A stretch of DNA of 53,532 bases, counting the filler, from Jimgerdemannia flammicorona (Eukaryota): NCBI GenBank assembly GCA_003990765.1. It is 2 parts of 2 records of this genome, joined end to end, with 100 filler letters (N's around TTAATTAATTAA, not from the genome) between each part and the next. Parts side by side here need not be neighbours in the genome. Positions count along the whole stretch, not along the records: positions 1 to 26,718 come from RBNJ01000700.1; 1 more part is not named here. The stretch is one strand, 5' to 3'. The translations under genes were made by a program, and so were the position numbers. Positions 2,352 to 47,606 of this stretch are shown here, piece by piece. The notes under the pieces are model-generated. The model ran no database searches. It was not told the DNA's origin and saw nothing but the letters and a program-made list of their open reading frames with translations. Numbering within the stretch: position 1 is the first letter of the stretch; each line of letters begins with the position of its first letter.

Positions 2352-2519
2352 GATAATAGTAATAATGAGAATAAGAGGGAATTCTAGTAGTAATTCTTTA
2401 GATCTCAAAATTTATAGATCTCATAGTTATATATATAGTAGTTTTTTTTAGAGTAGCTAATAGTAGATATAGATTATCTTTTCACTACTATATTTAAATT
2501 CTACAGTATGATCAAATTC

Positions 2520-3644
2520 TTTTTTTTTTTTTTTTTTTTATAGACTTAGAGTCTTATAGATTTTTATTGGAAGAAAACCTAGACTATATATATATATAGG
2601 CCAAAACTCTCTCCTACTACTCATCAAGCACTACTCTCTCATTAAACTTAGACTAACTATTGTCTAGTAGCTCAACTATACCAGATATAGTAGAGTCTAA
2701 TATAGCTTACACCTCATTCTATATACCATGTTCTCTCTACTATCAGAGAGAAATCAGCTATATACTAATAACTGAAAGTATATATCTAAAACTCTAATAT
2801 ATATATAAGGCTATATCTGAGCCAAATAGAATAGCTCCTACTACCCCAAGTAGAATGATAGATAAATAAAAACCCTTGTTGCCTCTTTCTCTACTACCTT
2901 ACTGGTCACAAGGTTTGGTAAGTGATCTTCTGAGTCCCCTTTTCCCTAATATTACCCCCTCTATCTCAGGTTGGTTTGCTGTGCCTACAGGGGCATAGTG
3001 GGAGGAGGGCAATAGTAGTGAGTTGCCTCTTTATCGGTGTCAGATCAGTGCTTCCTCCACTTTTTTGTGGATTCTGATGCCTTCAGCTGTGTCTGGAGTA
3101 TACCTGTTTTGGTGCAGTGCCTTCTTCCTTTTGCCATCACCAATAAGAAGTTGTCTCAGTGTGTCTCAGGCTACATAGGGAGTCAGCTGACCTTGGGCAT
3201 CAAGTGCTCAGTGTAGGTTACCTGCAGGTCTTTGGTACCTGTGGTAGGGCCCTCTGGCTTTGGTGAGCTTCTTGGTAAGTGCAGTTCTGATATAGGTGAC
3301 TGTTTTTCAGGTATTGTCAGGATGGAAGGAGAGATGGCCATTACAGATAGGAGGAAGGGTGATAACGGTGAACCAATAGGGTGCCAGGCTGGGGGTGGTC
3401 ATCAGGGCTGGGGCAGGTGCTGCTTCAGTGGGGCCTTTTGATTGGTACGGCATGGTTAGGTAGTAGGTATCACTCTCAGCTTCTTTTGGCAGTTAGGAGT
3501 TGGGCCCCAGTCATCAGAGGGGGTCAGGAGGCCTGAGGCTACCCATTTCAGGCATCTTGGCTGCACTCAACTGGAACCGGGAGCTGATATGGCAACATGA
3601 TCAAGGCCCACAGGCTTGAGTAGTGGGGTATTGGGGGCTTTTTT

Positions 3645-3694
<50 letters not shown>

Positions 3695-4105
3695 GGCTTC
3701 CTCTCACCTTACATGTAAGTCCTTTACTCATCTTGACTGGGAGAACCAGGCCCTACCCACCATGTTGTGCTTTGACAAGGGTTTTTCTTTGCCTGTCATT
3801 CTCTTTAGGGTGGTAGGGGCTATTCTATTCAGCTCGAGTATGGCCTTGTACATATATACATTGGGTTCTCGGGCATGTACTTTTAGTTGTTGGTGTATGG
3901 TTGGATTTCCCCTGGTGGTAGGGAGAGCATGGTGTGTAGAATGAGGTGTAGACCAACATAGGCCCTACTATATCTAGTATGGTTAAGCTGCTGGACAATA
4001 GCTAGCTTAGGTTAATAGAGGGGCAGTGTTTGGTGGGTGGTGGGGGAGGGTTTTGGCCTATATAGTCTAGGTTTCCTTCCAATAAAATTCCACAGGACAT
4101 GAGTC

Positions 4106-4154
<49 letters not shown>

Positions 4155-4780
4155 AAAACTCTCTTCAAAATACAGAACAATAGATAGGATCTAGTTCTCC
4201 CAAGTGAGATGAGTAGAAGACTTATATGTAAGATAAGAGGAGACCTCTAATATCTTATTACTTAAGCTTATAGGCCTCAATCATATTACTACATCAGCTC
4301 TCAGTTCTAGTTGAGTATAGCCAAGATATCTGATCTAGGTAGTCTTAGGTCTCCCAGCCACCCCCAATAATCAGAGTCTAATCTCACAAATTATCAAAAG
4401 TAGCCAAGAGTGATATCTACTATCTAACTACTCTATATTAATCAAAAGACCTCACCAAAGTAGCAGTTGCTCTAGCCCTGATGACTACTTCTAGTCTAGT
4501 ACCCTATTGGTCTACTGTTATTACCCTTCCACCTATCTGTGATAGCCATCTCTTCTTCCATCCTAACTTTATCCAAAAAGCAGTTGCCTATACTAGAACT
4601 GTACTTATCAGAAAGCTTACTAAAGCTCAGAAGGCCCTACTATAAGTACTGAAGATCTATAAGTAATCTATACTAGCACTTAATGCCTAAGGTTGACTGA
4701 CTCTATATATAGCCTATAATATACCAGATGATACCTTATTAATAATGGTAAAAGAAAGAAGATACTATACCAAAATAAGT
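2520..4780 (-). mobile_element. Non-autonomous poly(A) retroposon, copy A (old; interrupted by copy B at ~2884-4152)
   Basis: Poly-T at 2520; 2540-2880 and 4153-4780 are colinear with the best-preserved copy at 7106-8290. Confidence 0.8.
2884..4152 (+). mobile_element. Non-autonomous poly(A) retroposon, copy B (full length)
   Basis: Starts ctttctctactaccttactggtcacaagg; ends aataaaattccacaggacatgagtctgtt + poly(A); flanked by approximate TSD aaataaaaac. Confidence 0.85.
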
Positions 4781-5063: not shown

Positions 5064-7105
5064 TAGTGCTCTGAATAAGTCAATTTAAATCAAATCCAGA
5101 TTTGATTCATTACATAATGGTTTGATCCAAATCTCAAATTCAAAGCCATCCAAATTAACTCAGATTAATCTGAATCACCTCATTCAAATTGCTCTATTTA
5201 AATTATCCATCTGAACTACCCCAATCTGAATCACTCAATCTGAATCACTTAATCCAAATCACTCAATCTGAATTCTCTAATTTGAATCCTTCAATTTGAA
5301 TTCTCCAATTCAAATCCTTCAATCTGAATCCTCATTCAAATCCTTCAACTAAATCCTTCAATCCAAATTCTCTACATAACTCATATACCAGACACATCTA
5401 TATATACAATATATATATCAACAGATCAGTCTTAAATAGTTCACAGTACTGACGATGCTTTAAGTCAAATATCTCTGATATATAGTTCCACACCTTCTAT
5501 ACAATTCTTACTCTGAAATCTGACAATATTGTACTAAGATAGGAGATAATGTTATTTGTAATTATTGTAGATAAAAAATTAAGATATACCTATTGATACT
5601 TTTTGTTTAACACATATATGATATTGTTTCATCTACTCTCATAAACTGCATTAGTTAGAAGTTCAAAATACTTAGTGGTACAACTTTGAACATATATTGA
5701 TACATAAAAGACAAGTACTCTGACAAAATCAAAAAGAATACAGAGACAAATAAAATCAACATCCAAGCTGTGGTAAGTATATTTATCTAATTGCCTGACC
5801 ATTTCTATATCAACAATGCCATTTAATCAAAAATATTTAGCCATACTCTTTGACAGAATTTTGAAATCAGCTCATTTGCTAGATTGTATGCATAGATCAG
5901 CCATTTACAACTATTGAGAGTGATCAATTATATAGTATCTTTAGTCTCCTCAAGTATGATTTATATTTGCCAAGTATCAATACTATTTACAAAGATGTCC
6001 TAGAGGCCTATAGGAAGGAGCATAATAATCTCTACCAGATACTTTAGATAAAATAAGGGCAGTACTGTGACCTTTGCAAGCTGAATTATATAAAAATAGC
6101 TCACTAATTTAACCTCACATTCAATAAGTAGAATTCAGCAGGCAAAATTTCATTTACAATTAATACATAGATATTCCCTAATATAATTTCATTTCTGGGC
6201 ATTACTGGTTATTGGATTGATCTCAATTGGCAGCTTAAATCTCTCACCCTTGACTTTATCAAACTTGCTGGTCCTTATTCTGGAGACAACATTGCAGATG
6301 CTTTTATTAGTTGTATCTAGGAGCTTGGGATTACAACCAAGATAAAAAAAGGGGGCTTATCATCAGATTGATATTTTGAGAGAGATCCTAAAATAAATCA
6401 AATTTTATTAGTTATTTATTTTTGTATAAATTCACCAACCAAATATTTCAAGTATAGATTTTGACCATTACAATGAACAATGCTATAAATAACTCAATAT
6501 TTTTTCAAGTTTTAGCAGTTAGTCTTAAACAGGAAAATGTAGCCTTTAGTATAGAAAGCTATCATGTGTAATATCAGGCCCACATACTGAATCTCACTGT
6601 TCAGGACTATCTTATGTATATAGACAAAACATCCAAGAGAGGGGGGGCTCTGAGTATAATTTCCAAGCTGTGCAAACTGGTTGTGTCAGTCTGATCATCT
6701 CTACAATGATGAGACAAATTCACTATATAGTATAGGGCAATTAGTTTAGTCCCAAAAGAGCTTATATTGGACATCTATATATATTGGAACTCAATATTTA
6801 CAATGATTTAGTGCATACTGGAGTTTGTTATAGTATGTATTCTTTTTTTCTTCAGTTGGCTAAAGCAACTTATTTCAAATAATTAAAGATTTATTTTTTA
6901 AAAAAAAAAAAAAACAAAAAAAGCCAATAGATTCAACAGTGGCTGCCAATAAGGAAATACAGACTGAGGCTCTAGGTGAAAGTGAGTGAGATATACTTAG
7001 AAATATTGTCAGAGTTTGGGAAATAAGTAGTGATTGCTCTGGCTCTATACTCATTTTATCTGCCTCTATACTTATTTTATCTGCCTCCATACAATGTAAT
7101 ATCTC
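5064..7105 (+). mobile_element. hAT transposon relic (left TIR, subterminal repeats, decayed transposase)
   Basis: TIR tagtgctctgaataagtcaa matches the MITE ends; aatc(c/t)gaat repeats at 5160-5370; BED-finger remnants (CNYC ~5557); hAT motifs FLGITGYWIDLNWQLKSLTLDF...GPYSGDNIA (~6190-6300) and WNS (~6785); many in-frame stops. Confidence 0.85.
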
Positions 7106-8290
7106 TTTTTTTTTTTTTGTTTAACGGACTCTATGTCCCGCAGAATTTTATTGGAAGAGAACCTAGACTATTTAGGCCAAACCCCTCCCCCACCACCCAT
7201 CAAGCACTGCCCCCCCATTAATCTAGGCTAGCTATTGTCCAGCAGCTCGACCATGCCAGGCGCAGCAGGGCCTATAGTGGCCCGCACCTCGTTCTGCGCT
7301 CCATGCTCTCCCTACCACCAGGGGAAACCCAGCCATATGCTAACGACCGAAAGTGCATGCCCAAGAACCCAACGTATGTACAAGGCTATGCCCGAGCTAA
7401 ATAGAATAGCCCCTGCCACCCTAAAGAGAATGACAGGCAAAGAAAAAACCCTCATCAAAGCACAACTCGGTGGGTAGGGCCTGGTTCTCCCAGTCGAGGT
7501 GAGTAAAGGACTTACACGTGAGGTGGGAGGAAACCTCCAATACCCCACTACTCAAGCCTGCAGGCCTCAATCACATTGCCGTGTCAGCTCCCGGTTCCAG
7601 TTAAGTACAGCCAAGACGCCTGAAATGGGTAGCCTCGGGCCCCCTGACCCCCCCTGACGACTGGGGCCTCACCCCACTACCCGCCAAAAGAAGCCGAGAG
7701 TGTCACCTACCACCTAACCATGCCGTACTAATCAAAAGGCCCCACCGAAGCAGCACCCGCCCCAGCCCCAACAACCACCCCCAGCCTGGCACCCTACTGG
7801 TCCACCGTTATCACCCTTCCTCTTATCTGTGATGGTCATCTCCCCTCCCAACCTGACAATACCCGAAAAGCAGTCACCTACGCCAGAACCGCACTCGCCG
7901 GGAAGCTCGCCAAAGCCAGAGGGCCCCACCACAGGCACCGAAGACCTGCAGGTAACCTACACTGGGCACTTGATGCCCAAGGTCGGCCAACTCCCTACAT
8001 AGCCCGAGATACACCGAGACAACTCCTTGTTGGCGATGGCAAAAGGAAGAAGGCACTGCACCAAAATGGGTACACCCCAGATGCAGCTGAAGGCACCAGA
8101 ATCTGTGAAAAAGTGGAGAAAGCACTGATCTGACACCAATAAAGGGACAACTCATCACCATTGCCCTCCTCCCACCATGCCCCTGCAGGCACAGCAAACC
8201 AACCCAAGGTAGAGGGGGTAATATTAGGGGAAAGGGGACTTGGAAGGTCGCCTACCAAACCTTGTGACTGGTAAGGTAGCGGAGAAAGGA
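7106..8290 (-). mobile_element. Non-autonomous poly(A) retroposon, copy C (youngest, CpG-rich)
   Basis: Poly-T at ~7106-7118; AATAAA on the minus strand; 5' end cctttctccgctaccttaccagtcacaagg shared with copies B and D. Confidence 0.88.
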
Positions 8291-8305
8291 GCTGTATTCC
8301 ATCCT

Positions 8306-11300
8306 GGGTCCAATTCTTCTAGCATAGAGTTTCTTAGCTGGTTGTTGTGCTAGGGTGTCTGGGTAGAGGTTGTCTGTTCTAAGCATGACCATGTCACCAA
8401 TGTTATAGAAGGCTTCTCTTCACTTCAAGTTCATGTACTTGATCTGGTAGTCTTGTACTTCTATGAGAGTATTTCTTGTCATTTGGGTAAGGTCAGAAAT
8501 GGTCTCAGCCAGATCTTGGGCTGCTGGGACTACTGATTTTACAGTAGTACTTAGAGTCCTTGGGTATTGACCATGGTTCAGGAAGAATGGAGTCTTTTTT
8601 GTGGAGGTTTACTGACTGTTGTTGTAGGCAAACTCGGCATGGGCTAGGTACTTGTCCTAATCATTTTGCTTGTAACAGTAGAAGATACTAAGCATCTGTT
8701 TGAGAGTCCTGTTGGTTCACTCGGTTTAGCCACCAGTCTGAGGGTAGTAGGCAGTAGAGAACTTCAGCTTGGTTCCATGGAGAGAGAAGAATGTCTTCCA
8801 GAAGTTGCTTATAAACTTGGCATCTTGGTCAGATACAATAATACTAGGCATGCCATGTAGTCTGAATACTTGATTGAGAAAAATCTTGGCAATCTCTGGT
8901 GCTGTAGCAGTGGTCTTGGTGGGTGCAAAATGGACTTATTTACTTAGGCAGTCCATGAATACCATGATGGTATCCCATCCTGCCTTGGTCTTGGGGAGTT
9001 GGACAATGAAGTCCATTGCAATCTAATTCCAGGTGTGACTTGGGATAGGCAAGAGTTGTAAGAGTCCTGCTGGTAGCTTGTTACTACTTTTGAATCTTTG
9101 ATACATCTTGCATGAGACCACAAAGTCTTTGATGTCCTTGGTCATCTTAGATCAGTAGAACTCTCTTGAGAGGAGGTTGTAGGTCTTTTTGAAACCAAAT
9201 GTCCTGCTGCAGAGATATCATGAAGTTGCTGCATGATCTTAAGTTGCAAAGTATCATTATTGGGTACAACCACTCTGTCATCGTCCCTGTAGATAAGTCC
9301 ATCATGGTAAGTGAATCTCTTGGACATTTGCCTCATGGGTTCTGGAATCTCAGCTTCTGGATCTTGGCAGAATTGGAGGAATTTCATCAGGGGGCTGTCC
9401 TGCTGATAGCCATCCTTGATCATTTGGGTAAGGTCTCCAATTATCTCGACCATGAAGACAAGTTCATCTTCTATGTATCTGGAGAAACCATCAGCCACAT
9501 GGTTGGTTTTGCCTGAGATATACTTGATTTCTATATCAAAGTTGGCAATGATTTCCATCCAGTGGGCTTGTCTGTGGATCAGTATAGGCTGTATGTAAAT
9601 ATACTATAGGGTATGGTAATCAGTATAAGCTACAAATAGTTGTCCTAGAAGGAAATGGCACCATTCCTAGAGTATAGTAACAATAGCCAGAAGTTCCTTC
9701 TCATGGGTGGTATACTGGGTCTCAGCTGGCTTGAGCTTTTGGGAAAGGTAGGCCACTGGGTGGTCCCCTTGACTGAGTACTGCTCCAATAGCAATGTCAG
9801 AGTCATCTGTAATCAGAGTGAATAGCCTGGTAGGGTCAGGTGCAATTAGCACTGGAGTAGCTTGAGGGTTGTGGAGATAGGGATATCCTTAAGGGCTGAT
9901 ATCTTTTGGGGGTCTACATTGATATCTTCAGCAGAGATGATATGTCCTAGGTACTCAATCTGGTCTTGATAGAACTTGCATTTGCTCATCTTGGTATAGA
10001 GCTGGTATTCTTGCAAGAGGGTCAGTACTTGTCTGAGATGGGTGTAGTGTAACTCTACTGTTTCACTGTAGATTAGTATATCATCAATATACACAAAGAC
10101 ACAGATGTTGAGGAGTGGTCCAAAGATGTCATTCATCAGATACTGGAATATTGCTGGTACATTGGTCTATCCAAAAGGCATGACTCAGAACTGGTAGTAT
10201 CTAAATCATATTTGGTAAGCTGTCTTCTCAATGTCCTTCTCATCAATGAGAATCTGATGATAGCCATTTTGCAAGTCCAGTAGGAAAAAGGTCTTGGCCT
10301 TGAAGATTTGGTATAGTAACTCATCAATCCTGGGCAAGACATACTGGTTCTTGATTGTAATATTGTTGAGGGCTCTGTAGTCAATACACATTCGCAGAGA
10401 GCCATCCTTCTTCTTGATAAATAGAATGGGGGCTCCAAATGGAGAGTGGCTGAGTTCAATGTATCCTTGGGCCAGTAGTTTGGTCAATTCACTCCTGAGG
10501 GTCTTGAGCTCAGGTTGGGCTAGTTGGTAAATACTCTTATAGGGGGGTTCAGATTCTGGAATAAGATCAATTCCATGTTGGATTTGGTGCTTGGGTGGAA
10601 GTCCTTGGGGGTCTTGGAATATATCTTGGAATTCTTCAAACAGTTCTTGAGCTTCTGTTGGGATTGGGCTACTTGTAGCTTCAGTGACATCTTGTACTAT
10701 ACAAATGAAGTAGGTTTTCCCCTTTTTTCAAGAGAGTCTCTTCATTTAAATGGTAGAGATGATTTTGATTCCTTGGTAGTTGGTACCTTCCTGGGGTGTC
10801 AGGATGATCTTTCTGCCTTCATGGGTAAGATTAACCTTGTTGGTTCTCCAGTTGATGTCTGGGTTATGCTGGGTCAACCAGGCTTTTCCTAGGATAATGT
10901 CTTATCCTGGGAGGTCTACGATGCTGAAGTCTAACTTCTCTTGGTATTTACCAATCTTGAGCAAAAGATCTTCACAGATATTAGTCAATGGTGTAGTTTT
11001 GCCATCCCTGAAGGTAATACTTCTTTTCTCAGTGGCTGGTCTACTTCAGGCTCCAATCCTCTTGGTGGTCTTGGTGCTGATGTAGTTTCCAGTAGCACTA
11101 CTATCAAGCAAGGCATTGACATTCTGTTTGTGGACTTGGCCTGTGAACTTGATGCAACTGTCCTCCTTCTTGATGGTGTTGAGCTCTTCATCCTCATTGT
11201 TGTCCCAATTGCTGTCAGTCTCCTTGAAGTCAGTTTCTCCCCATCCTTCATAAGGAGGGTTATCTTGTTTGGGTTCCTCAGTCTGTTGGGCTTGGTGCTT

Positions 11301-13709
11301 CTTGGATTGAATTTTGAAAATGTTGGAGAGGCATGCATGGTATTCACCAACATGTTCTATGTAGTACATTCAAATAGAATGAGGGTATTGTCCACATGGT
11401 GCATAACCATCTACAATTCTCTTATACCAGTTTTCATCATCTTCCTTCATCATAGTGATCTTTTGACTGGGGGGTTTGTTGGTTGAACCAAACTCTTTCT
11501 TGCCACAGTCTGTCTGGGAGAGCTCAGGGACTTCTTTGATAGTGAGATCTTGATGGATTTCTTCAATGATTGCTTGGACAATCCTTTGGCCTGTTTTGAC
11601 TTCAAATGATGTGTCTTAAAAATTTTGCAAGATGACATGGATTTCACTAGTAAATCCTTGGTCAACTACTCCTCCTCCTAGCCCAATGTTGAACTCTTTG
11701 GCTAGACTGCTTTACTCAGCAAGACAGATATATATACCTTTGGGAGCTTGTATTGCAATCCCTGTTCACACTATAGCATTGGTACTTGGTGGAATGGTGA
11801 GGTCTTGGCTACTGTAGAGATCATATCCAGTATCAGTTGGGTGGGCTTTAGTAGAGATGGTAGCCTTGTACCATATCTTCTATACTTTGATAACATTCTT
11901 GGGGTTCTTCTTTCCTGGACCTTCTTCAATGATAGTAATGTTCTGGTTACTGGATTTGCCTGATCTGTTTCTCTTCTCAGGGTATTTGAATGAGATATGT
12001 CCTGCCTTCTTGCAGATGAAGCACAATCCCTTTTCATGGAGCTGCTTCTTTTCATCCTCAGTGGGAGGTCTGGGTCCTCTGGGGTTTTGCTGATTCCTTT
12101 GATCATTTCTCCTGGTAGAATTTCTCCTATCTTGGTTATTCTTCTTGTATTCTTGATTTCATAGAGCTTGCACAGCAAGGATTTCATGGGCTCTTCTTTG
12201 TACTTGGGCAAAGCACTATGAGTAGTGGGGGCATCCTTGGGGAAGACCTTGTTCCTTGATCTTCTGGGTGAGCCAGTCTGGTAGGGCTGCAAAAAGGTGA
12301 TTGGCTCTGGTACCATTTATGGCCAAATTGTTCTCCTGATAGGTAAGTCCAACAGTTTTGAGATAGGTGTCCATTCTGGTAGCAAAGGTCTTTAGATCCT
12401 CCTTGCCATTTTTGTGGGACTTCATCTGGGACAGTTTGTTCTAAGTTTCTTATATGTAGACTGCATTTCGGAATTTGGTCAGTAGCAAGACCTTGAGTTC
12501 TGGGCCTACTTCATAGTCATCCCAACCTGGTCTATTGTTGGCAGGTACTTGTCCATTAACTTGAGGGCAGTCTTCCCAGGTTACTGAGTGTTGTTCCAAG
12601 GTATGCCAGAATTCAGCTGCTATTCCAGTGAAGAATGTGGCTACTGTTTCCACTTGTACTGCTGATGTGGCAAACAGCTGTTGATGGGTGCTGTCCTAGT
12701 TATTGGTAAGCATTCTTATAGACACTCGGTTGTTATTCCATTGGTTTGCTTGGTAGCCTATATTAACTGCATTGATGAAGTTTTCAATATCGCTGTTTTT
12801 TCCACTGAATGTTGGGATTTGCAGGGTCTTGGTTGATTTGTTCTGTTCAGCAATCTGTCCTACTATCCCTACTAATACTGCTAGCTGGGTAGTTAGTGCT
12901 GCAATGTTGGTATCTACCATTGTGTTGACTATTGGTAGTAGTCCTGTTGGAGTAGATTCTCCTGAAGATTGTTCTGCTTGGTGGGGTTGTAGTGCTGTAT
13001 GACTTAGAGTCACTTGATTTCCAGATATCAAGTCAAAGAGTCCTGTGAGAGAGGGTAAACCAAATCTCTGTATAGGTGGCTGGGTTGGCTCTGGGGTCTG
13101 GTCTTCTTGACCTGTAGTTCCTTGGTAAATTCCTAGGCCTGCTATTCCTCATTGGCTATCATCAGACTGGTAACCTGTAGAGTCTTCATCTGACTTCCTT
13201 CCCTGATGAGAAAGTGCATCCTCATACCGACTAGGTCCTTCAAAGAGGATATCAGTCTTTGGCTAAGTAGATGGGCCTACTTCTTGTTCAGCAGTAGGGG
13301 ATGGGTGGCCTGCTTGCTCATTCTCATATCTGGTTATGGCAGAGACATAGTATACAACTAGCCTATAGTAGAGGGATGTCTTGGTAGGGGTATGATGATA
13401 TCTGTCAGAGGTAATCTACTTGACAGCTACTTCTCTTGCAGCAGGGGGTGTGATATAATCTAGAAAATCCTGGGTGGCTGCAGCAGTAGATTCTGGGGTC
13501 CTAGTGATTCCAATATATCCTTGGAGGAGTTCATAGAATCTATGGTGGCTGACAATATTCCTAAGTCCTGGGTGGTAAGTCCTAAAGGCCTGGTATAGAT
13601 CCTTGTAAGCCTGGTCAATTACAAGCTAGTGGGTCCTTGGGTCTGTGGTTTCCTGGTACCATCTGGTCCTAATGGTAAGGGCTTCTCTGGCTCTGGTTTG
13701 AGGATCCAT
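8306..13709 (-). pseudogene. gag-dUTPase-protease-RT-RNaseH-integrase polyprotein (decayed)
   Basis: ATG at 13709 is in one frame with ORF-track pieces starting 13031, 11369, 10487 and 10136; the stops I read are TAG/TGA/TAA derivable by C>T or G>A; frame break near 9855. Confidence 0.9.
11481..11891 (-). pseudogene. dut: Trimeric dUTPase domain inside the Gypsy polyprotein
   Basis: Minus-strand translation has all five motifs in order: HPTDTGYDL, E*SSLA, GGGVVDQGFTSEI, GQRIVQ, TDCGKKEFGST. Confidence 0.92.
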
Positions 13710-13794
13710 AGTTGGTTCTGGGTGTTACTCCTGTCTAAGGTTGGTCTTGTCTAACTTCAGGAGTGTGTTCTTTGATGTCTTCTTGGCTGGTAAT

Positions 13795-13806
13795 CTGCTG
13801 CTACCA
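13795..13806 (-). promoter_or_regulatory. Primer-binding site, probably initiator tRNA-Met
   Basis: TGGTAGCAGCAG begins 3 nt after the LTR terminal CA; TGGTAGC matches the start of iMet-type PBSs. Confidence 0.75.
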
Positions 13807-13809
13807 AGT

Positions 13810-14606
13810 TGTAATAACTCTCACTTCTACCCCTCTCTTATTCTTTGGATAATTAGGGAAGTGAACCATTACTTAGAGACTTAGTACACAATGTATACCA
13901 AGAAGCCTTTAGTTGAGAAAGTGCTCGCTTATAAGTAGTTGTAGCAGCAGTGCCTTCTATTTCAAAGGTCTTTCTCTGGTTTGCCTTCTATTTCAAAGGT
14001 CTTGTTCTTTACTATATATAGACAGAATTTGCTTTAGAATTCAGATTCAATGGGTTTACTTAAGTCTTTGGGGATTTATATACCAGTCTCAGTTCTGGCA
14101 GAAGTTAGCTAGGCTTCTGGAGTTTAGTCAGAAACACTAGAGTCACTTAGATGTCATTACTAGGACTCAGAGGAATGTGTGAGTGTGGGGGGGACTTGAT
14201 TCTTATATCAAGGACTGAACTAAAACTGCTTTATTTTGGATGGAAACTGGGGGGTATTTATATAAGTTGGTTTGCAATTTCTGACTAAGTATGAGTGACT
14301 AATTTGGTAACTATAATGAGGTTTGTGATCATGACCTTTGTCAGGTGGTTTTTGGCAAAAACAACTTTGTGATCAGGACTTCAATTACTAGGCAATGATC
14401 AGCTACTGTGGCAACTGTTGCTGTAGCACTGATTGTCAGAAATAAGCTGAATATCATTTTTCACATTGTTTTTGCATCATTCGTTCATTCATCACTTGCT
14501 ATTCATATGCTGCACTTGATTGTATGATGACATCATTGCCGCTAGGTCATGTGATCACTTGTCTCATCACATTCCATCTGTTTGCTTATTTGTTTGTTCT
14601 ATTACA
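13810..14606 (-). repeat. 5' LTR (~797 bp)
   Basis: TGTAATA...TATTACA termini; homologous to 17072-17845 and 18192-18955. Confidence 0.92.
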
Positions 14607-16018: not shown

Positions 16019-17845
16019 TGTAACCACAACTACAAGTGATAATATCTTTGAGATCACGATTTTCTCATATGACTAGCACATGCTGACTTACAGCAACAGG
16101 TCACACATTTTGTTAGAAAGCATGACCAAAAGAAGATCACACCAGATGGGTGAATAAGTATAAATATCTAAGGCAATAATGCTCTACAACTCTTATCCCC
16201 CTCTCCTTACAAAGAAAAAAACAAAGACAAGAATATCTGCTACCTGCTGCCAAACTGCCCACCATAGCCAGCCCCTCTCAAGCCAGGTTGACTGCCTTTT
16301 TGGACACATCCAGGTTGCTATCCAAGAAAGGAACTGCTGCTCTGAGGCCCTTAACCTCTCCAGCCTGGACCTAGGACAGTATGTTCTTAACTGCTATAAA
16401 CTTATTAAAAGGGCCTACCTTGCTATCAGCTGCCTAGAGATCTAGCATAAATATAAAATCAGTCACCAACTCCTCCAATGAGCAAAGAACCTACCCACTG
16501 ACCAGAGCTCAGACTAGACCCACCTGGATAGGTATGAGCAAAGACTTGCTAAGAAGGTCTATCAAATCTTGTGCCATGCACTCTTTGCAATCTCCAACCT
16601 CAACTATGTCCAACTGAAGGATTTCCAGACCCTCTCTTTTCCTGAGATTGATGAGCTAGATATCAAGGTTATCCAAGAAGCCAACTCCTGAATTACCCTC
16701 AAGTCTACTGACTGCAAACTCCACTGGAGTCCTCTTCTGAATGACAACCCAGACCAATATCTCCAAGGCCTCTCTGACCTCTTTGAAGAACCACCTATCT
16801 GAATGGATATCCTCAGACATAAGAATCAAGAACCCTACTTAGATGGTCCCAACTATATCAGATGGAGAACTCCTACACCAGTACCCATCCCAATGTAAGA
16901 ACTATTTGCAGACCTCATTGACTTCTCTATCCTGGGCAGCAAGCCATTAGTAACCATTCTCTCTGCTACTAAAGAAAATGGCAACAATACTGAAGAAGGC
17001 TCTCCACCTTTCTCTCTCCTAGTTCTCAATTTTTTAATCAACAAGGATGTTGATTTCTAAGGAGAGAAGGATGTAATAGAATGAGTGACATGATGAGTGA
17101 TCATGTGACCTGGTGATGATTTCATTATATGATCAAGTGTGACATATGAATAATGAATGACAAATGAATGAACAATGCAGAAAATGATACAAAAAATGAT
17201 ATCTAGTTTATCCCTGACAATTAGTGTCATAGTAACTATTACTATAGTAGCTGATTATTGTCTAGTAATTGAGATCCTGATTATAAAGTTGTTTTTGCCA
17301 AAAACCACCTAATAAAGATTGCAATCACAAACCTCATTATAGTTACCAAATTAGTCACTCATACTTAGTTAGGAATCATAGACCAACTTGTATAAATACC
17401 CCCCAATTTCTATCCAAAATAAAGCAGTTTTGGTTCAGTCCTTGATATAAGAATCAAGTCCTCCCCACACACACACATTCTCCTGAGTCTTAGTAATGAC
17501 ATCTAAGTGACTCTAGTGTTTCTGACTAAACTCCAGAAGCCTAGCTAACTTCTGCCAGAACTGAGACTGGTATATAAATCTCCAAAGACTTAAGTAAACC
17601 CATTGAACCTGAATTCCAAGGCAAATTCAGTCTGTGTACAGCAAAAAATAAGACTCTTGAAAGATAGGGCAAATCAGAGAAAGACCTTTGAAACAGAAGA
17701 TACTATCACTACAATTACTTATAAGTGAGCACTTCCTCAAACTGAAGGCTTCTTGGTATACATTATATACTGGGTCCCTAAGTAATAGTCTTACTTCTCT
17801 AATTATCCAAAGGATAAGAGAGGGGTAAAAGTGAGAGTTATTACA
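16019..17845 (+). mobile_element. 3' part of a Gypsy element of the same LTR family: extra ORF, PPT and LTR
   Basis: Decayed ORF from 16179; PPT aaggagagaagga at ~17059-17071; LTR 17072-17845 (tgtaata...tattaca). Confidence 0.85.
16179..17060 (+). pseudogene. Additional ORF of unknown function upstream of the 3' LTR (~290 codons)
   Basis: Single frame with only transition-type stops; C-terminus (DGPNYIRWR...LIDFSIL) repeated at 17959-18156. Confidence 0.65.
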
Positions 17846-18955
17846 GGAGCCCCCTCTTGAATGACAACCCAGACCATTGGCTCCAAGGCCTCTCTGACCT
17901 CTTTGAAGGACTACCTATCTGAATAGATATCCCCAGGTATAAGGATCAAGAACCCTACTTGGATGGTCCCAACTACATTAAATGGAGAATACCTATACTG
18001 GTACTCATACCAATACAAGAACTATTTACAGACCTCATTGACTTCTCTATTCTGGACAGTAAGCCATCAGCAACTACCTTCTCTGCCATTGAAGGAGAAG
18101 ACAACAATACTGAAGAAGACTCCCCACCTTTCTCTCCCCTGGTTCTCAATTTCTAAATCAATGAGGATATTGATTTCTAAGAGAGGAAGAATATAATAGA
18201 ATGAGGCATGAGGAGTGATCATGTGACCTAGTAAGCAATGACATCATATGATCAAGCATGATATATAAACAATGAATATAACAAATAATATAAAATAATG
18301 TGAAAAATAATATCCAGCTTATCTCTGACAATTGATATTACAGCAACTATTACTATAGTAGCTAATCATTGCCTAGTAATTGAGATCCTGATCATAAAGC
18401 TGTTTTTATCACAAACTACCTAACAAAGGTCATGATCACAAACCTCATTATAGTTATCAAATTAGTTACTCATACTTAGTCAGAAATTGTGGACCAACTT
18501 GTATAAATACCCCCCAGTTTCCATCTGAAATAAAGTAGTTTTCGTTCAGTCCTTGATACAAGAATCAAGTTCTCCCTCTATACACACATTCTCCTGAGTC
18601 TTAGTAATGATACCTAAGTAACTCTAGTATTTCTGACTAAATTTCAGAAGTCTAGCTAACTTCTGCCAGAACTGCAACCAGTATATAAATCTCCAAAGAC
18701 TTAAGTAAACCCATTGAACCTGAATTTCAAAGCAAATTCAGTCTATGTACAGCAAAGGACAAGACTCTTAAAAGATAGGGCAAATCAGAGAAAGATCTTT
18801 GAAAGATAAGACACTACCACTATAATTGCTTTCAAGTGAGTACTTCTTCAAACTGAAGGCTTCTTGGTATATATTATATACTAAGTCCCTAAGTAATACC
18901 TTATTTCCCTCAGTATCCAAAGGATCAGAAAGGGGTAGAAGTAAGAGTTATCACA
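17846..18955 (+). mobile_element. Second Gypsy 3' end (extra-ORF tail, PPT, LTR 18192-18955)
   Basis: 17846-18191 is a diverged copy of ~16726-17071, followed by a third LTR copy. Confidence 0.85.
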
Positions 18956-18985: not shown

Positions 18986-20988
18986 GATACCTTTCTTAGT
19001 TATCACTCACATTATACACACTTTTATAACATACTTTCTAAGTATTTATTGGAGAAAGATACTAAGCTTATGGCAACCAATAAGCAAGCTAACATGTATA
19101 CTAAGTTGGGTGGACCTAGAGCCTTTGACTGGCAACATATCAGACAAGAGTATAGACTAGAGATGGGGTCCTTTGGTGGTCTGAGTGGGCAGGGCAGTTC
19201 AGGTAGTGGTAGTGGTACTAGAGGAGAGGTAGGAGGGCAGAAGGAGAGGAGCTTTGTGGATACTCTGAAGACTGGAGATTGGCCTGTGGGTACTTGTAGT
19301 AGGTAGGCAGATGGGCCCAAAGAGGAAGGGGAATCTGGCTGATGGTGTAACAGGGCTGGCAGTAGCACTGTTACTCAAGAAGTCAATCTTGGAGTTCACA
19401 GCAACCTTGTGCTTCAGGGGCTTAGCAGTAACAGTAAAGATGGTTCTGGGGATTATCTTGAAGCAAGTGGCTGGAGCTGTCTTGGTGAAGTTCCTGAAGG
19501 GATTGGAGGGAGTTGAATTGGGTTTTGAGGAGGTGGGTCTGCTGAAGAAAACATTGAAATCTGGAGTAACTGTTGATGAGATAGTGATCCTATGATATGG
19601 TATTTAAAATGAGACCCCAGAGTGATTTAGTTACTAGTGAAGAGAGTACCTATGGTGATGAAGGTTGAGACTAGGAGGAGGGTGGAGAAGGTGATGGTAG
19701 AGTATAGTAATATAGTCAATATTGGTTTCCAGATGTGGGAGGAGACCACTTTCAGGATGAGTAATATAGATGTCAGGATTAGACTAGCTGGGAGAGAGGC
19801 CACAGAGAAGGTAAGTGACTGGCCTTTAGTGATGATGTGGGGGACTTTTGTCTGTAAGGTATTGAGGGTAAAAGAGAGTGAAGTGGAGGAGGAAGACTTG
19901 TTGGGGGCTCTGGAGGAGATGAGTGGAGCAGTAGAGTGGAGGGTGAAGACCTGAAAGTTGTATATAGAGTTAATACATTTGGAGATTGTGGATGAGAAAT
20001 ATATTCACACTGATAAGAGGCAGTGGAAGAGAGCTCAGGGGTGCAAGAAGCAGAGAGAGTTGCTGGTGAGTATAGAAGTAGGGGTGAAGAAGAATATTGG
20101 GGGCACTGAGAAGTCTAGGGGTGTGGAGGTGAGTGTCTGGGCTAGTGAGGGAGGAGGGGATGCAGAGGAGGGCCTGGATGGGGCCAGAAAGATGCCACAC
20201 AAGGACCCATTTGTGGATGGTACATTCAAAGTCTGGGAACCAGTCTTGGCAACACACTCTCTTCAGTCAGGTAAGGTCCTGCTGTGAGGGGCCAGGCAGC
20301 AGAGGATGAGCTAATGTGGGGTACTCAGTGAGTACACTTTGGAGTTCCTGATATGGTGAAAGGAGGACAGGTAGTGGCAGTTGGCAAGGATGAGCTGGTG
20401 GATGTCCCAGAGGAGAGGTGGGATGAGACTACAAGTATAGGGGCTGATATCATAATGCTGGATACAGGAAGACCAGGGACACTGAGAGGGAAGAAGGTGG
20501 AAAACCTGCTGTAGATGAGCCAGATGATAGATAACTTTACAGCAGAAGAGTTGAGAGAAGTGGACCTGAGAGTGATGAGTGAGGAGTATTGGGCATGGAT
20601 CCTATGTAGAGATAGGGTGGTAGAGACACTGAAGGCAGAGGTACTTGCAATTTTTCTGGAGGAGGAGAGTTATGAGGTTGATGAGGAGAGGAGGGCTGAG
20701 CTGATAGTTATTGTCAGTGAGCAGGCTACCTACTGTTGGACAGAGCATCATGGTTTGCAACTCTAGCAGGAGGTATGTCTGGAGTATCATGAAGACTTCA
20801 AGGAAAAGGTGGATGGGGAGATGGCTGAACTTCTGATTAGACTGGAGGCAAAGATGGCTGAAGAGAAGAGATTGACTGCTGAACATAACTTGGACTTGGC
20901 AAAGGAGGGAATGAATGTAGATTTGTAGAGGATGAGCTTGATAATTAACATTATTTCTTATGAACAGTACAATAAACATTTTCTCTCT
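18986..20988 (+). mobile_element. L1-like LINE, 5'UTR + ORF1 only (ORF1 ~19070-20928)
   Basis: Colinear with 20989-23125; breaks just inside the ORF2 start (ttttctctct). Confidence 0.85.
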
Positions 20989-23900
20989 GACACCTTTCTC
21001 AGTTACCACTCACATTATACACACTTTCACAACATACTTTCAAGCATTTATTGGAGAAAGGTACTAAGGCAATGGCAACCAACAAGTAAGCCAACATGTG
21101 TACTAGGTCAGATAGACCTGGAGCCTTCAACTGGAAACATGTTAGATGTGGATATGGATTGGGGATGGGGTTGTTTGGTGGTCCAAGTGGGCAGAGCAGT
21201 TCAAGCAATAGTAGCAGCACTGGGAGAGGAGCAGGAGGACAGCAGGGGAGGAGCTTTATGGATACATTGAAGAATAGTAGATGGCCTATTGGATCTTGTG
21301 GTAGACAGATGGAGGGGAAGGGAAAGCAGAAGGAAGGAGAAGAGAGAGGTGCTGGACCTCAGCCAGTGGGAAGAAGGGCTAGTGGAGTGGCAGCTGGGAG
21401 TAGGGGGGGGATTGCTGATGGTGGCATGACTGAGAATCTGGAAAAAAATCCAGATATGACTGCTGATGAGAGGGCTGGACAGATGGGCCCAAAGAGGAAG
21501 GGGGACCTGGTGGATGGTGTGATAGGGCTTGCAGTGGCACCATTACTCAAGAAGTTGATCTTAGAGTTTATAGCAACCTTTTGCTTCCAGGGTCTGGTGG
21601 TAATGGCAAGGATGGTTCTGGGAATTATCTCAAAGCAGGTAGCAGGAGCTGCCTCTGTAAAGTTTCTGAAGAGATTGGAGGGAGTGGAGGTGGGTTTTGA
21701 GGAGGCAGGTCTGCTGGAGGAGGTATTGAAGACTGGTGTAGCTGTAGGAGAGGTGGTGGTATCTATGGTATGGTACTTGAGGTGAGACCCCAGAGTGGTT
21801 CAGCTACTAGTGAAGGGGGTACTAACAGTGATGACTGTGGAGATCAGGAGGAGGGTTGAGGAGGTGATAGCAGAGTATGGTGATGTGGTGGATATTGGAT
21901 TTCAGATGTGAGAGGGGACTACTTTCTGGACAGAAGATGTAGATGTCCAGATTTGGCTGGCTGGGAAAGAGGCCACTAGGAAGACAAGCAACTGGCCTTT
22001 AGTTATGCTGTGGGGGCTTTCATCTGTAAGGTATCAAGGGTGAAGGGGAGTGAAGAGAAGGAGGAGGATCTGTTAGAGGCTTTGAAAGAGAGAAGTGGAG
22101 CAGTCAAGCAGAGGGCTAAGGCCTGGAAGGTGTATGTGGAATTGATGTATTTGAAGATTGTGGATGGTAAATATATCTATACTAACAAGAGGCAGAGAGA
22201 GTTGTTGGCAAGCATGGAAGAAGAAGTGAAGAAGAATTGTAGGAGGTATTGAGAAGTCTGGGGGCACTGAAGCAAGTGCCTAGGCCAGTAAGGGGGGAGT
22301 ATATCAAGGAGGGTTAGGATGGAGCAGAGAAGCTACTGCACAATGACCTTTATGTAGATGGTACATTTGAAGTCTAGGAATAAAACTTTGATAGCACCCC
22401 CCCTCTTGTTAGTCAGGTCCTACTGTGAGGAGCCAGGCAGTAGAGAATGTGCTGATACATAGAGCCCAGTAGGTATATTTTGGAGTTTCAGATCTAGCAA
22501 AAGGAGAACAGATAGTGGCAGTTGGTGAGGATGAGCTGGTGGATGTGATGGAGGAGGAGTGGGATGAAACTACAAGTGCAGGAGCCAATACCATGATGCT
22601 GGATACTGGAAGGCCCATGATGCCAGGGAGGAAGGAGGTGGGGAACCTACTGTGGTTATACCAGATGATGAACAACTTTGCAGCTGAAGAGTTAGGAGAA
22701 GTAGACCTGTGAGTGATGAGTGAGGAGCATTGGGCATGGATCTTACAGAGTAATGGGGTAGTAGAGGTACTGAAGGTAGAGGTGCTTGCAATTTTTCTGG
22801 AGGAGGAAGGATATGAGATTGATAAGGAGAGGGAGACCGAGCTGGCAGTGGTTGTGGGTGAGTGGGCTGCCTTCTGTTGGATAGAGCATCATGGGCTGAG
22901 ACTCTGGAAAGAGACCTGTCTAGAGTACCACAAGGACTTCAAGAAAAAGGAGAATGAACTTCTGGTGGGTTTGGAGGCAAAGGATGCTGAAGAGGAGGAT
23001 TTGGCTGTTGAACATGACTTGGACTTGGTACAGGAGGAGAGGTATGTGGATTTGTAGAGGATGAGTAGAGTATTTCTTCTAAAAAACATTATTCCTTATA
23101 AACAGTACAACTAATATTTTCTCTCTAAATGTGAATAGACTACAGGGATCTGAGCAGTATAAGAACATTTTTACTTGGCTTAAGAGTTTGGAGGCTGACC
23201 TCTTTTTGCTGCAGGATGTCCATTGTGAGGATGATGAGGATCAGGAGACTTAGACTAGAGAATGGGGAGAAGCTGTAGCTTGGATTAACAAAGTGGCAAT
23301 TTTGGTGTAGAGTAATAAAGGGGACTTAGGTGGAATAAAAAGCTGGGGGACTGTTGGGTGTAGGGGGAATGACATAGGCCTGGGTGGGTGCCAGTAAAGT
23401 TTAGGTCTTGCTATTGCCTAGCAGTTAGGGGTGAGAGGATTACATGGATTAAAGGTTTTTTGAAAGAGAGCACTCTTCTGGAGGAGGGGGTCAATATTCT
23501 GGGAGGAGACTTTAATATGGTACAGGATATTCAGTTGGATAGAACTGATGGAGAGAGGAGTGCTGGTGGAAGGAGTGGTGGCCTAGACATATGGGAGGAG
23601 GTGGAGAACCTTAGCTCCCTGGGAGATATGGGCAGGATAGAGTGGGGAGACAGGAGGATCTACACACACTGGGTGAATGGACTGGGTATAAGAATTGACT
23701 GATCCTGACAGCCAAATGCTGGGGAATCAATGTTTAGAAGACTCTGGAGTTAGAGTGGTGCCCATGGTCTGATCATTGGGGTCTCTTGGAGCAGGAGCAG
23801 TTTGGGGGGAGTGGAGATGGACCTGGACATTGGTATCTTAACTTCTCTCTGCTGGCTGAGAAGGTTTTGTAGGACCCATGAGTGGAGGACATCCAAGTGA

Positions 23901-26718
23901 AGATTGCTGACTGGATATGTGAGGGCTTGCCAGTGGGTGTCCAATAGATAAGATTGAAAGAGACTACACAGGTTCACTGGGGAGAGGCTGGTAGAGAGGC
24001 AGAGAAGTAGATCAGGAAAAGAGTGAGGTGTGCTTCCAATCAGTTGATTAGATTGCAGATAGAATGAGCAGATTTGATATATTCTGGTAAGGTGGATGAT
24101 TGGAGGTTGGCATGAGCAAAATTGGAGATGATGGAGCTGCAACAGGTGTTGAGAGAGGAGGAGGAGATATATATGAAAGGAATGGCAGCTAGGCTGAGAT
24201 GGCAGAGACTTGAGGAGGGGGAGAGGCCTACTAGGTACTTGTCAAGGCTTCTCCAGGCTAGAAGGGTATGGCATAGATGGGATGGAGATCTGGATGCCAA
24301 TGGAGAAATGGTACATGACATACAACAGATTTTGGAGTTACTGAAGGAGCAGTGGAGGGGTCTGTAGAGTGAGAAGGGGGTACTAATGAAGAAGTAATTG
24401 AAGGTATGTTTGAGGATTGGGAACTGCCACAAGTGGAGGGCCTGGGGGATTTGATCCTGCCAGTCCAAGAGGAGGAGATCCAGAGAGTCCTGGTAGCAAC
24501 TAAGCTTGGAATAGTACTAGAAGAGGATGGGTTACCTTGGAACTTTCGGAAGAAGATGGTGAAGATCCCTGGAGTATTAGGAGAGATGGTAGCCCTCTGT
24601 GACTAAGTTCTTCTAAATGGTGAGTGGGTTGGAGGGCAGGACCTAGGGCTGGTGGCCCTGTTGTATAAAGAAAAGGGAAGGAGGGAGGATTGGAAGAACT
24701 GGAGACCAATTATACTTCTGGATATAGACAGGAAGATAGTGACTAAGGTGATTATTGCAAGGCTACAGAAGATTGCTCAACAAGTGCTGAGTGAGGAGCA
24801 GTGGGGCTTTGTTGGAGACAGGCTAATTAGAGATGGGACAGTCTGGATTTATAGCATCATTGAAGGAGTAAGAGCTTGTGGATTGAATGGGAGACTGGTC
24901 TTTTTAGACCAGGAGAAAGCCTATGACTGCATTTGGCAGATATGACTGAGCAAGGTGCTGGATAGAATTGGTGTTCCTCCATGATTTCAGATTTCTATGT
25001 TGAATCTGTTGGAGGGTAGTAGGGCAGCTCTGATGTATAATAGTCACTAGGGTCTGGCATTTCCCTTGGGAAGAGGAGTTCCTCAGAGAGATCCACTATC
25101 ACCTATTCTTTACACCCTTTCATTAGAATCTTTGATAGATAGGATTTGATGGAAGGTGGTAGAGCTCTCTATATATAGAGTAGTGTGGAAGGTGGGGGCC
25201 TTTGCCAATGACATGGTAGTTAGACTTGGCTCAGTGGTAGATGTTGAGATATTTAAAGAGATGGTGGAATGGTATGAGGTATACTCTGGGGCAAAAGTTA
25301 ACTAGTATAAGTATGAGACAATAGTGCTAGAGAATGAGCTAGTGGGTGGGGACATCATTAGAACAATTGTCTCTACAGGAGAGGTGGTGTAGTATCTGGG
25401 TATCTTCCTTTCTATATATGGATCTGTCTTGCCATGGGTGTGGTGGGAGAGGAGGGTGGCCATTTGGGGAGAGGCTCTTAGAGGTTGGGGAGGTCACCAT
25501 ATCTCTCTAGTAGACTGGGTGTTGATTCTAAATGTCTACTGGTTCCCCAAGCTATAGTATGTTGCTTATCACTTAGACTTTCTAGCTTGGGTGGTGAAGA
25601 GACTGATGAAACTGGCTAGAGATTGGATTTGGATAGAGAGGTGGTCCCAGATTAGTTGGGATACTCTTGCAATACTGGTGGTTAGAGGAGGGCTAGGTCT
25701 AGTTGATTTTTCTAAGAGGCTGTACTGCCTACAAGCTTGGTGGTTGAGAAGGACTGTTGAACTACAGGGTCGGGGTTGGGTGCTGCTGATACAGAAGGTG
25801 TGGAAGATGAGATTCTCCCCTCAAGAGTCATTGGGAGATTTGCTATCTCTGGTGGACCTGAATGGAAGCTAATGACTATGGTATAAGGGCTTCTGGTAGG
25901 GGGTGGTAGATGGAGCACACCACATTGGCCTGTACTGGTGGAGCAATGAGGGGGAGATGCTGTGGGGACCAGCTATATAGAGATGGGACAGACTGCTTCT
26001 GGGAGGTATTCCACTTGCTGAGTTTGACATTGGTGATGGAGTGAAGTGTCAGAGGGGGCTTGGTCAGGATATTTGGCCAAGTAGTTGGCAGGCAGTGAGG
26101 ATTGGCAATGAGTGGGACTGGGCAGGAGTCTGGTCATAGAGTACTGAAGTGCAGAGATGGCTTCCTCCCAAGTTCTGAGTGGTGTGGTGGTGGATGTTGC
26201 AGAGGAATGTCATATTGAATTTCCATGCTGGTTATCTGATATATGGTGGACAATTAGATTGTGAGAAGTGTTACAATGTTAAGCAAGTTGGGGGATTTAT
26301 GCAGATGCCAGAACATTGGCTGAGAGAGTGTGAGATTCTGAAGGACTTTTGGATAGCAGTGGGGGACCAGTTGGGTGTGAAGAAGAGGCCAGATGGAGAG
26401 CAAGGGTGCTGGGAGGATTTGAAATCTAGGCTAGTAGGTGGTGTGGGCAATGGATGGCTCACTATAGAGTGGGTTTTAGCTGTATGGGTAGGGCTGGCTG
26501 GACATTGGCTTTTTGTATTTGAGGGGCAACAGATGAGTTTATAAGAGAAGTTGTTAAGATAGAAGGGGTTGATGGGAGATTTGCTGACAGGGTAGTGGGT
26601 TGGTTGGGGTCTCCAGAGTGGGTATCATCACTATCTGGTAGAAGAGATCTGTAAACAGAGTGGTGGGTGGGTGGTAATAGTGAATAAGAAAGTGGTCTTT
26701 CATCAAGAGGGAGTTGGG
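20989..26718 (+). mobile_element. Near full-length L1-like LINE (ORF1 21072-23057; ORF2 ~23061-26718), mutated
   Basis: APE endonuclease (SLNVN, ILGGDFN, RID, SDH); RT (NWRPIILLDID, DQEKAYD, FAND for FADD); C-terminal CEKC...EHWLREC zinc finger; runs into the gap. Confidence 0.93.
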
Positions 26719-26818
26719 NNNNNNNNNNNNNNNNNNNNNNNNNNNNNNNNNNNNNNNNNNNNTTAATTAATTAANNNNNNNNNNNNNNNNNNNNNNNNNN
26801 NNNNNNNNNNNNNNNNNN
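26719..26818. other. Assembly gap with artificial TTAATTAATTAA six-frame stop spacer
   Basis: N runs flank ttaattaattaa. Confidence 0.97.
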
Positions 26819-26833
26819 AAAAAAAAAAAAAGC

Positions 26834-34734: not shown

Positions 34735-36336
<1,602 letters not shown>

Positions 36337-47582: not shown

Positions 47583-47606
47583 TTTTTTTGTTTAAGAAAT
47601 TTTTTT

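Follow-up and report, generated by a model that had tools for sequence, protein, structure and literature searches.

A decayed Ty3/Gypsy copy in Jimgerdemannia flammicorona with a dUTPase in frame between the Gag zinc knuckle and the protease

Does a Gypsy retrotransposon of Jimgerdemannia flammicorona carry a dUTPase as a regular part of its gag-pol frame and, if it does, where did the domain come from? The question is raised by a stretch of 53,532 nucleotides of this genome (assembly GCA_003990765.1; the whole stretch is called the window here), in which an initial annotation had placed such a domain between the zinc knuckle of Gag and the aspartic protease (PR). On the evidence given below we consider it very likely that window positions 8306-14559 (minus strand) hold a dead, 3'-truncated copy of a multi-copy, chromovirus-type Ty3/Gypsy element with the order Gag, CCHC knuckle, dUTPase, Cys/His module, acidic spacer, PR, reverse transcriptase (RT), RNase H and integrase (IN), and that the dUTPase is a stable component of this lineage, derived from a cellular eukaryotic gene.

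The reading frame from knuckle to protease

Positions 10101-13700 of the window were translated on the minus strand, in the frame whose codons start at 13700-3k; this gives 1200 codons, with stops read as X. A Pfam search of this frame returned the dUTPase family PF00692 at E 1.3e-24 (residues 613-740, profile positions 3-128 of 129; 86.8 bits, where the family cut-off is 22), a significant result for the hidden Markov model check on a stop-masked frame, and the 187 codons of 11481-12041 taken alone returned the same family at E 6e-26 (91.2 bits). In the same frame lie the protease family RVP_2 at residues 842-961 (28.3 bits, with the cut-off at 20.3) and, starting at residue 1095, RVT_1, together with a weak dCTP-deaminase-like echo of the dUTPase fold. 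Stops occupy 21 of the 1200 codons overall and 4 of the 187 in 11481-12041, and there is no frameshift. With PF00692 and RVP_2 matched in one uninterrupted register, the proposed in-frame position of the dUTPase between knuckle and protease holds. The parts of this central region, all on the minus strand, are as follows.

11982..12023, minus strand: zinc knuckle C-x2-C-x4-H-x4-Y, sequence CFICKKAGHISFKY, read in frame and compared with the best-matching protein, P0015
11481..11864, minus strand: trimeric-type dUTPase (Pfam PF00692) with its five motifs in order, three in-frame stops and damage in motifs 1-5
11301..11432, minus strand: conserved Cys/His linker module, from an alignment of relatives
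10818..11177, minus strand: retroviral-type aspartic protease (Pfam RVP_2), active site D-S-S (AGT) against D-S-G in relatives

Taken alone, the knuckle does not reach the Pfam threshold of 20.8 bits for zf-CCHC: it scores 12.4, since the window has Y at the fourth ligand, where P0015 has C. All five motifs of a trimeric dUTPase can be recognised in the expected order, as had been claimed, though they are damaged: in the window copy the catalytic residues are not intact and the frame is not open. The Cys/His-rich linker that had been noted between dUTPase and protease was also found, in the same frame.

Other copies, relatives and the decay of the window copy

A dUTPase inside one Gypsy copy might belong to that copy only, and we therefore looked for the segment elsewhere. 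The knuckle-to-protease stretch was searched against 1.84 billion representative proteins and matched 19369 of them at E <= 0.001. The best match, P0015 (E 1.2e-133), is 84% identical over knuckle, dUTPase and linker and consists of an open frame of 485 amino acids with Gag, an intact CCHC knuckle, dUTPase and linker. We also compared the window with contigs, at a likeness of at least 80%, from four public runs that belong to four studies (three soil metagenomes and one organism; X1 to X4). All 30 bins of 8300-14560 are covered in all four runs by contigs 80-99% alike, from 1542 contig pieces in X1, 166 in X2, 198 in X3 and 64 in X4. The junction of knuckle and dUTPase is bridged by single contigs at 11619-12050 and at 11769-12065, and a single contig bridges 11100-11522, which holds motif 5, the linker and the active site of the protease. 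At least seven runs with the element were listed, with shares of 0.05-0.11 and no RNA run among those listed. On these matches the dUTPase is a family feature and no one-off insertion: other copies, which the initial annotation had seen as the deciding comparison, hold the segment.

The contrary explanation, that what sits inside a single Gypsy copy is a dUTPase gene or pseudogene of the host or the product of a chimeric assembly, would accord with the internal region being single-copy in the window. Against it stand the same knuckle, dUTPase and linker in P0015, the bridging of both junctions by contigs of four runs from four studies, and the occurrence of a dUTPase ahead of PR in 11 other protein clusters described next. 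We assign it an almost negligible probability.

To place the domain order among relatives, 162 dUTPase-domain proteins (the 150 best of the 19369 matches and a few others) were surveyed with PR and RT profiles of our own. Within this set the dUTPase precedes PR in 11 other clusters (P0020, P0021, P0024, P0027, P0029, P0030, P0063, P0078, P0118, P0120 and P0130), and PR precedes the dUTPase in about 14. Several of the former are informative beyond the order itself. An open frame in P0078 runs from a CCHC knuckle (Pfam, 21.9 bits) through the dUTPase to PR; P0027 has gag, dUTPase and PR in an open frame, and P0063 has dUTPase, PR, RT and RNase H in another, both by Pfam. An intact CCHC lies upstream of the dUTPase in P0024, and P0021 and P0020 have the order dUTPase, linker, PR. 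The five motifs are kept in P0024 and P0021, which are only 32-34% identical to the window. Many of the best matches (P0016-P0019, P0022, P0026 and others) consist instead of one chain with two or three tandem dUTPase domains and lack retroelement domains.

Metagenomes were scanned in two ways. A scan with P0015 gave 48 pattern matches, none of which was confirmed. A scan with an alignment of three proteins (A3) gave 75 loci, 10 of them with a retroelement domain beside the dUTPase, and in none of these 10 did the dUTPase precede PR. Three loci (L001, L006 and L051) have the order PR, dUTPase, RT. In L005 (958-2595), as in L002-L004, RNase H, dUTPase and an integrase zinc finger share one open frame in Gypsy elements with chromodomains. 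This is the position of the dUTPase in non-primate lentiviruses and not that of the window element; full-text word searches of the literature found no description of the order RNase H, dUTPase, integrase in Gypsy elements.

Comparison with these copies and relatives also shows how the window copy has decayed. Motif 1 has T (ACT) where relatives have A; TGA stands for R ahead of motif 2 and TAA for R within it; in motif 3, AGT (S) replaces G and CAT (H) replaces R; in motif 4, GTC (V) replaces A; and in motif 5, TGT (C) replaces R and GAG (E) replaces G. Each of these defects, like those of the knuckle and the protease site, is one or two transitions away from the residue of the relatives. The initial annotation had read its named defects (A>T, R>stop, G>S, R>C, G>E) as transitions, and comparison with relatives bears this out, for motif 1 in the DNA itself: at 11831 the window has T and all other covering copies have C (8 contigs in X1, 4 of 4 in X3 and 1 in X4; X2 is without cover). 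The stop TAA at about 11616-11618, where P0015 has G, is not accounted for by transitions alone. Over the element, X1 differs from the window by transitions at 586 places against transversions at 48; the window has A/T where the others have G/C at 385 places and the reverse at 201. The ratio of observed to expected CpG is 0.04 in the element against 0.94-1.17 in gene-bearing blocks of the window.

The damage, almost entirely C>T and G>A transitions, would have accumulated after integration. Among the three copies of the long terminal repeat (LTR), the commonest contexts are C>T before A and G>A after T (26 of 42 such changes in copy C, 16 of 25 in copy B); of 26 listed places with T or A in the window against C or G elsewhere, 4 are CpG, 8 CpA/TpG, 12 CpC/GpG and 2 other. 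A deamination process, RIP-like (resembling repeat-induced point mutation) or otherwise, may lie behind the decay. Classical RIP was considered as the cause and rejected, the element having no RIP signature (TpA/ApT 0.84; (CpA+TpG)/(ApC+GpT) 1.43). As the initial annotation held, a dUTPase encoded by the element would not shield integrated DNA from deamination.

Fold, origin and proposed role of the dUTPase

For the fold we turned to the relative P0021 in place of the window copy and modelled it with AlphaFold2 from a 40-row alignment (mean predicted local distance difference test score, pLDDT, 87.1; predicted template modelling score, pTM, 0.45). The dUTPase part of the model is predicted to adopt the jelly-roll dUTPase fold and matches human dUTPase with Z 18.5 and a root-mean-square deviation of 1.2 A over 119 residues (by Foldseek E 2.3e-11, TM 0.89). 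Retroviral dUTPases also match, that of Mason-Pfizer monkey virus (M-PMV) with Z 16.7 at 32% identity and that of equine infectious anaemia virus (EIAV) with Z 16.1; the PR part of the model matches Ddi1 and EIAV protease with Z 11.8.

By sequence, the dUTPase of the window family, represented by P0015, is nearer to cellular eukaryotic enzymes than to retroviral ones. Its best matches are 3p48/3f4f (Saccharomyces cerevisiae Dut1p; 3f4f carries this name and 3p48 has the same aligned residues) at E 3e-32, human 1q5h at 2.6e-31 and Arabidopsis 4oop at 1.2e-30, against 6e-18 for EIAV (1duc) and 1.5e-13 for feline immunodeficiency virus (FIV; 1f7d). M-PMV is absent from the best 60 matches to P0015, the worst of which has E 8e-11. 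Judged by these similarities the source of the dUTPase is a cellular eukaryotic gene rather than a retrovirus, and its betaretrovirus-like order is therefore convergent, in agreement with the independent capture that the initial annotation had suggested.

We then asked whether trees could place the acquisition. The dUTPase tree holds 155 of the 162 surveyed rows (rows of fewer than 110 residues and P0165-P0168 were left out) and is poorly supported, with 13 of 152 branches starred. In it the rows with a dUTPase before PR do not cluster: 10 changes are needed for 11 rows, and 124 of 500 shuffles are as low. The PR tree holds 37 rows and 110 columns (proteases of fewer than 85 residues were left out, and P0037 is labelled as lacking a dUTPase though it starts inside the linker). 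Here the dUTPase-before-PR rows need 8 changes, with 66 of 500 shuffles as low; they lie dispersed over the tree, with a minimum of 4 changes imposed by starred branches. On 110 columns this scatter fits repeated gain or shuffling.

The order knuckle, dUTPase, protease is nevertheless that of the betaretroviruses, mouse mammary tumour virus (MMTV, p30) and M-PMV, in the account of Hizi and Herzig 2015 (PMC4531489), and the comparison with MMTV and M-PMV drawn in the initial annotation was apt. In that account the betaretroviral dUTPase lies at the Gag-Pro junction, probably leaves the precursor joined or next to the nucleocapsid (NC), and has a presumed role in excluding uracil from cDNA. A shared layout could in principle reflect common ancestry with betaretroviruses or transfer between retroviruses and this element, which the fold match between M-PMV and P0021 would also suit. 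The cellular enzymes, however, are far closer by sequence, with M-PMV missing from the best 60 matches, and the nearest matches of PR, RT and IN are Gypsy proteins with chromodomains. The betaretroviral dUTPase is a gag/pro transframe protein made by ribosomal frameshift (PMC4531489), whereas the window element, P0078 and P0027 have one frame; in the window element, unlike in betaretroviruses, a conserved Cys/His module and an acidic spacer of about 100 residues lie between dUTPase and PR. Finally, the scatter and the forced changes in the PR tree count against such homology. Homology of the layout is in our judgement very improbable.

Several points count against the preferred reading, that of a chromovirus-type lineage with a stable dUTPase of cellular origin. 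The window copy cannot function, having 21 stops, two frame changes and damage in the knuckle, in all five dUTPase motifs and at the protease site. The relatives on which we rely are metagenome records, and the closest of them, P0015, has H in place of the motif 5 arginine and may itself be in decay. The window copy has neither chromodomain nor 3' LTR, and the placement among chromoviruses therefore rests on relatives. The dUTPase tree reveals neither the donor nor the number of acquisitions.

Elements of this kind have been described before. Novikova et al. 2010 reported dUTPases in Gypsy elements of Postia placenta, where the domain lies at the amino-terminus of Pol in PosPlaTy3-3, at the carboxyl-terminus in PosPlaTy3-4 and between PR and RT in PosPlaTy3-5; the same paper cites earlier cases in Phanerochaete chrysosporium (Novikova and Blinov 2008) and in Tmt1 of Tuber melanosporum, and suggests independent acquisitions (PMC2864245). 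PosPlaTy3-3 is, like the window element, a chromovirus-type Gypsy element with a dUTPase inside gag-pol and upstream of the protease (PMC2864245). We compared these elements with ours by description only, and the description in PMC2864245 does not mention a Cys/His module. Llorens et al. 2009 had noted the dUTPase as common to betaretroviruses and various fungal chromoviruses (PMC2774666), and a preprint finds dUTPase, protease and CCHC domains jointly enriched in Entomophthora muscae (10.1101/2023.09.13.557621). The novelty implied by the initial annotation, which had called the domain rare in LTR retrotransposons, thus falls away, given these published elements and the 11 clusters with a dUTPase before PR. 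Going by these sources, the window element is a further, decayed example of a class in print since 2008-2010.

Outside fungi, dUTPases occur in the LTR retrotransposons Juno, Vesta and TelKA of bdelloid rotifers (Rodriguez et al. 2017, PMC5408684) and in giant Gypsy elements of planarians (Arkhipova and Yushenova 2019, PMC6431247). Like the window element, these are LTR retrotransposons with a dUTPase conserved in the lineage; unlike it, they reside in animals and have the domain between PR and RT, as described there (PMC5408684, PMC6431247). Behind the dUTPase of Juno lies an additional zinc knuckle (PMC5408684), which resembles the Cys/His module of the window element. The lentiviruses FIV, EIAV and caprine arthritis-encephalitis virus share with the window element the enzyme family and the proposed role, but have the dUTPase between RNase H and integrase (PMC4531489). 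In lentiviruses that role has experimental support, loss of the enzyme raising G-to-A changes in non-dividing cells (PMC4531489).

By analogy with retroviral dUTPases (PMC4531489), the domain in an intact member of the family would be translated within the Gag-Pol precursor and packed into the particle. The protease would then free it, possibly still joined to the nucleic-acid-binding knuckle, and the dUTPase trimer would hydrolyse dUTP near the reverse-transcription complex. Less uracil would then end up in the cDNA and the G-to-A load would fall, above all where the cell has little dUTPase of its own. This uracil-limiting function is the one usually ascribed to a dUTPase in such a place, and we adopt it here by the same analogy.

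Some phage dUTPases act in signalling. It is accordingly worth weighing whether the domain here, rather than acting as an enzyme, sits at the Gag-Pol junction as a structural or regulatory spacer that might, for instance, time the release of the protease or bind a host factor. The histidine at the motif 5 arginine in P0015 would suit this, as would the F that both P0015 and the window have at the motif 3 tyrosine site, unlike most dUTPases, and the conserved extra module directly past the dUTPase. M-PMV NC-dUTPase is, according to the title of reference 47 in PMC4531489, of low catalytic efficiency. On the other side, P0024 and P0021 retain all five catalytic motifs in spite of their low identity to the window, and the dUTPase domains of the relatives score high in Pfam (106-133 bits). 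We regard a non-enzymatic role as unlikely and retain the uracil-limiting one.

These comparisons support the view that retroelements time and again need to exclude uracil from their cDNA, and they likewise support the Gag-Pol junction as a tolerated slot for a dUTPase in retrotransposons and betaretroviruses alike. Gypsy elements with a dUTPase are not very rare in environmental sequence, where the domain is found in at least three positions.

What lies beyond the dUTPase is less familiar. The gap between dUTPase and protease in the window is about 108 residues, and its first part is conserved. Alignment of relatives gives the pattern W/F-Y-x3-D/E-G-x2-P-x-G/K-x-C-P-H/Y-x-I/V-x-M-Y-x7-C-x2-C, which is present in P0015, P0020, P0021, P0024 and P0039 and partial in P0037; in the window two of the Cys have become Y (TAC) and one codon is a stop. 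The gap in the other dUTPase-before-PR clusters is 10-55 residues, without the linker motif. In the AlphaFold2 model of P0021 the linker is predicted as helix, hairpin and helix (pLDDT 85-91) and is followed by a disordered acidic spacer; the dUTPase on one side (pLDDT 97) and the protease on the other are both modelled with confidence. Its Cys, His and two further Cys are arranged like those of small zinc knuckles, and the module may bind zinc.

The linker module had no Pfam match, and the linker of P0024 gave no usable match in the protein atlas. Fold searches with the whole model were dominated by dUTPase and protease and barely probed the linker. Full-text word searches found no description of a Cys/His module after a dUTPase, and within the literature so covered the C-P-H...C-x2-C module is the only part of the element that appears to be undescribed. 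It is a small, testable addition that leaves current understanding unchanged. We raise, as a tentative proposal that we hold to be possible but rather doubtful, that chromovirus-type Gypsy elements have repeatedly moved or re-acquired a cellular dUTPase, which settled at positions also used by retroviruses (knuckle-dUTPase-protease, RNase H-dUTPase-integrase and protease-dUTPase-RT), and that it is accompanied here by an undescribed zinc-binding C-P-H-x12-C-x2-C module that may hold the enzyme at nucleic acid or govern how it is released from the precursor.

The element as a whole and its surroundings

The remaining parts of the element, from its 5' end to the sequence that adjoins its broken 3' end, are these.

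13810..14559, minus strand: 5' LTR of about 750 bp, ending in CA at 13811-13810, from self-BLAST and reading of the sequence
13795..13806, minus strand: sequence like a primer-binding site, TGGTAGCAGCAG, 3 nt past the LTR end, read from the sequence
12024..13709, minus strand: Gag-like region, opening with ATG at 13709 and running to the knuckle, by similarity to P0015 and P0027
9936..10418, minus strand: reverse transcriptase (Pfam RVT_1, E 9.1e-33); in tblastn, residues 268-557 of P0002 align to 10664-9819
9199..9858, minus strand: RNase H, in a frame unlike that of RT, by tblastn of P0002 residues 593-816
8306..9196, minus strand: integrase (H2C2 finger and core) in a third frame (Integrase_H2C2, E 4e-09; P0002 residues 818-1117)
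7106..8293, no strand assigned: unrelated repeat adjoining the broken 3' end of the Gypsy element, by self-comparison

The LTR was recognised by self-BLAST, the repeat finder having detected no LTR pair that flanks the element. Self-comparison matches it to two further copies in the window, at 17096-17845 (85%) and 18214-18955 (82%), both in the opposite orientation. These lie in a region with a tandem duplication (16723-18955, period about 1120 bp, 84% identity), whose unit is one LTR of the same family and about 370 bp, opposite to the element. The role of TGGTAGCAGCAG as a primer-binding site is suggested by its position and its start with TGG; it has no tRNA match. The Gag-like region shares 83-85% identity with P0015 over residues 1-238 of that protein and 31% with the gag portion of P0027; the Pfam search matched no gag family in it.

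By Pfam and tblastn, the Pol order PR, RT, RNase H, IN is that of Ty3/Gypsy (Metaviridae). The rve domain of the integrase reaches 32.3 bits in Pfam, just short of the cut-off of 32.6. In tblastn with P0002, a chromodomain-bearing relative, the integrase is cut off within its SH3-like part at residue 1117 of 1239, short of the chromodomain position; the nearest full polyproteins have the chromodomain PF00385. The element stops at about 8300, and the repeat search, self-BLAST and tblastn found no 3' LTR for it in the window. Contigs of the public runs have loose ends of other copies at 9774-9855, which suggest that the window copy is locally rearranged there, and an extra A past 9196 in other copies corresponds to a 1-nt deletion in the window copy. 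Other copies differing at both places, the frame changes are therefore private to the window copy.

The rest of the window is mixed in composition. Its CpG content is bimodal: the ratio lies at about 0-0.2 where there are repeats and at about 1.0 in the gene blocks of 27-34 kb, 37-39 kb and 43-46 kb. For a host carboxylesterase the protein atlas pointed only to Eukaryota, Ascomycota or Bacillota being the commonest groups. The repeat that adjoins the element belongs to a family found at 2517-4158, 7102-8293, 35007-35570 and 47603-48096, with long homopolymer runs of A or T (about 50-100 nt). AT-rich blocks at 1-3 kb, 40-43 kb and 46-48 kb have a GC content of 14-27%, are depleted of CpA and TpG too, and have a RIP-like look. 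An 8-kb block at 19000-27000 has a GC skew of +0.38 to +0.48 and an observed/expected CpG near 0; it contains internal repeats of 1.7 kb (19308-20988 against 21480-23126, 75%), and one open reading frame (ORF) of the block is without a Pfam match.

Two paralogous ORFs of 699 and 638 amino acids stand in inverted orientation at 26849-28728 (minus strand) and 30013-31892 (plus strand), with 72% identity at the DNA level; they have weak P-loop / STAND NTPase matches below the Pfam cut-offs and a CpG ratio of about 1. A second Gypsy fragment, of another family (RNase H, integrase and chromodomain region), lies on the minus strand at 50629-52990, heading to the window end.

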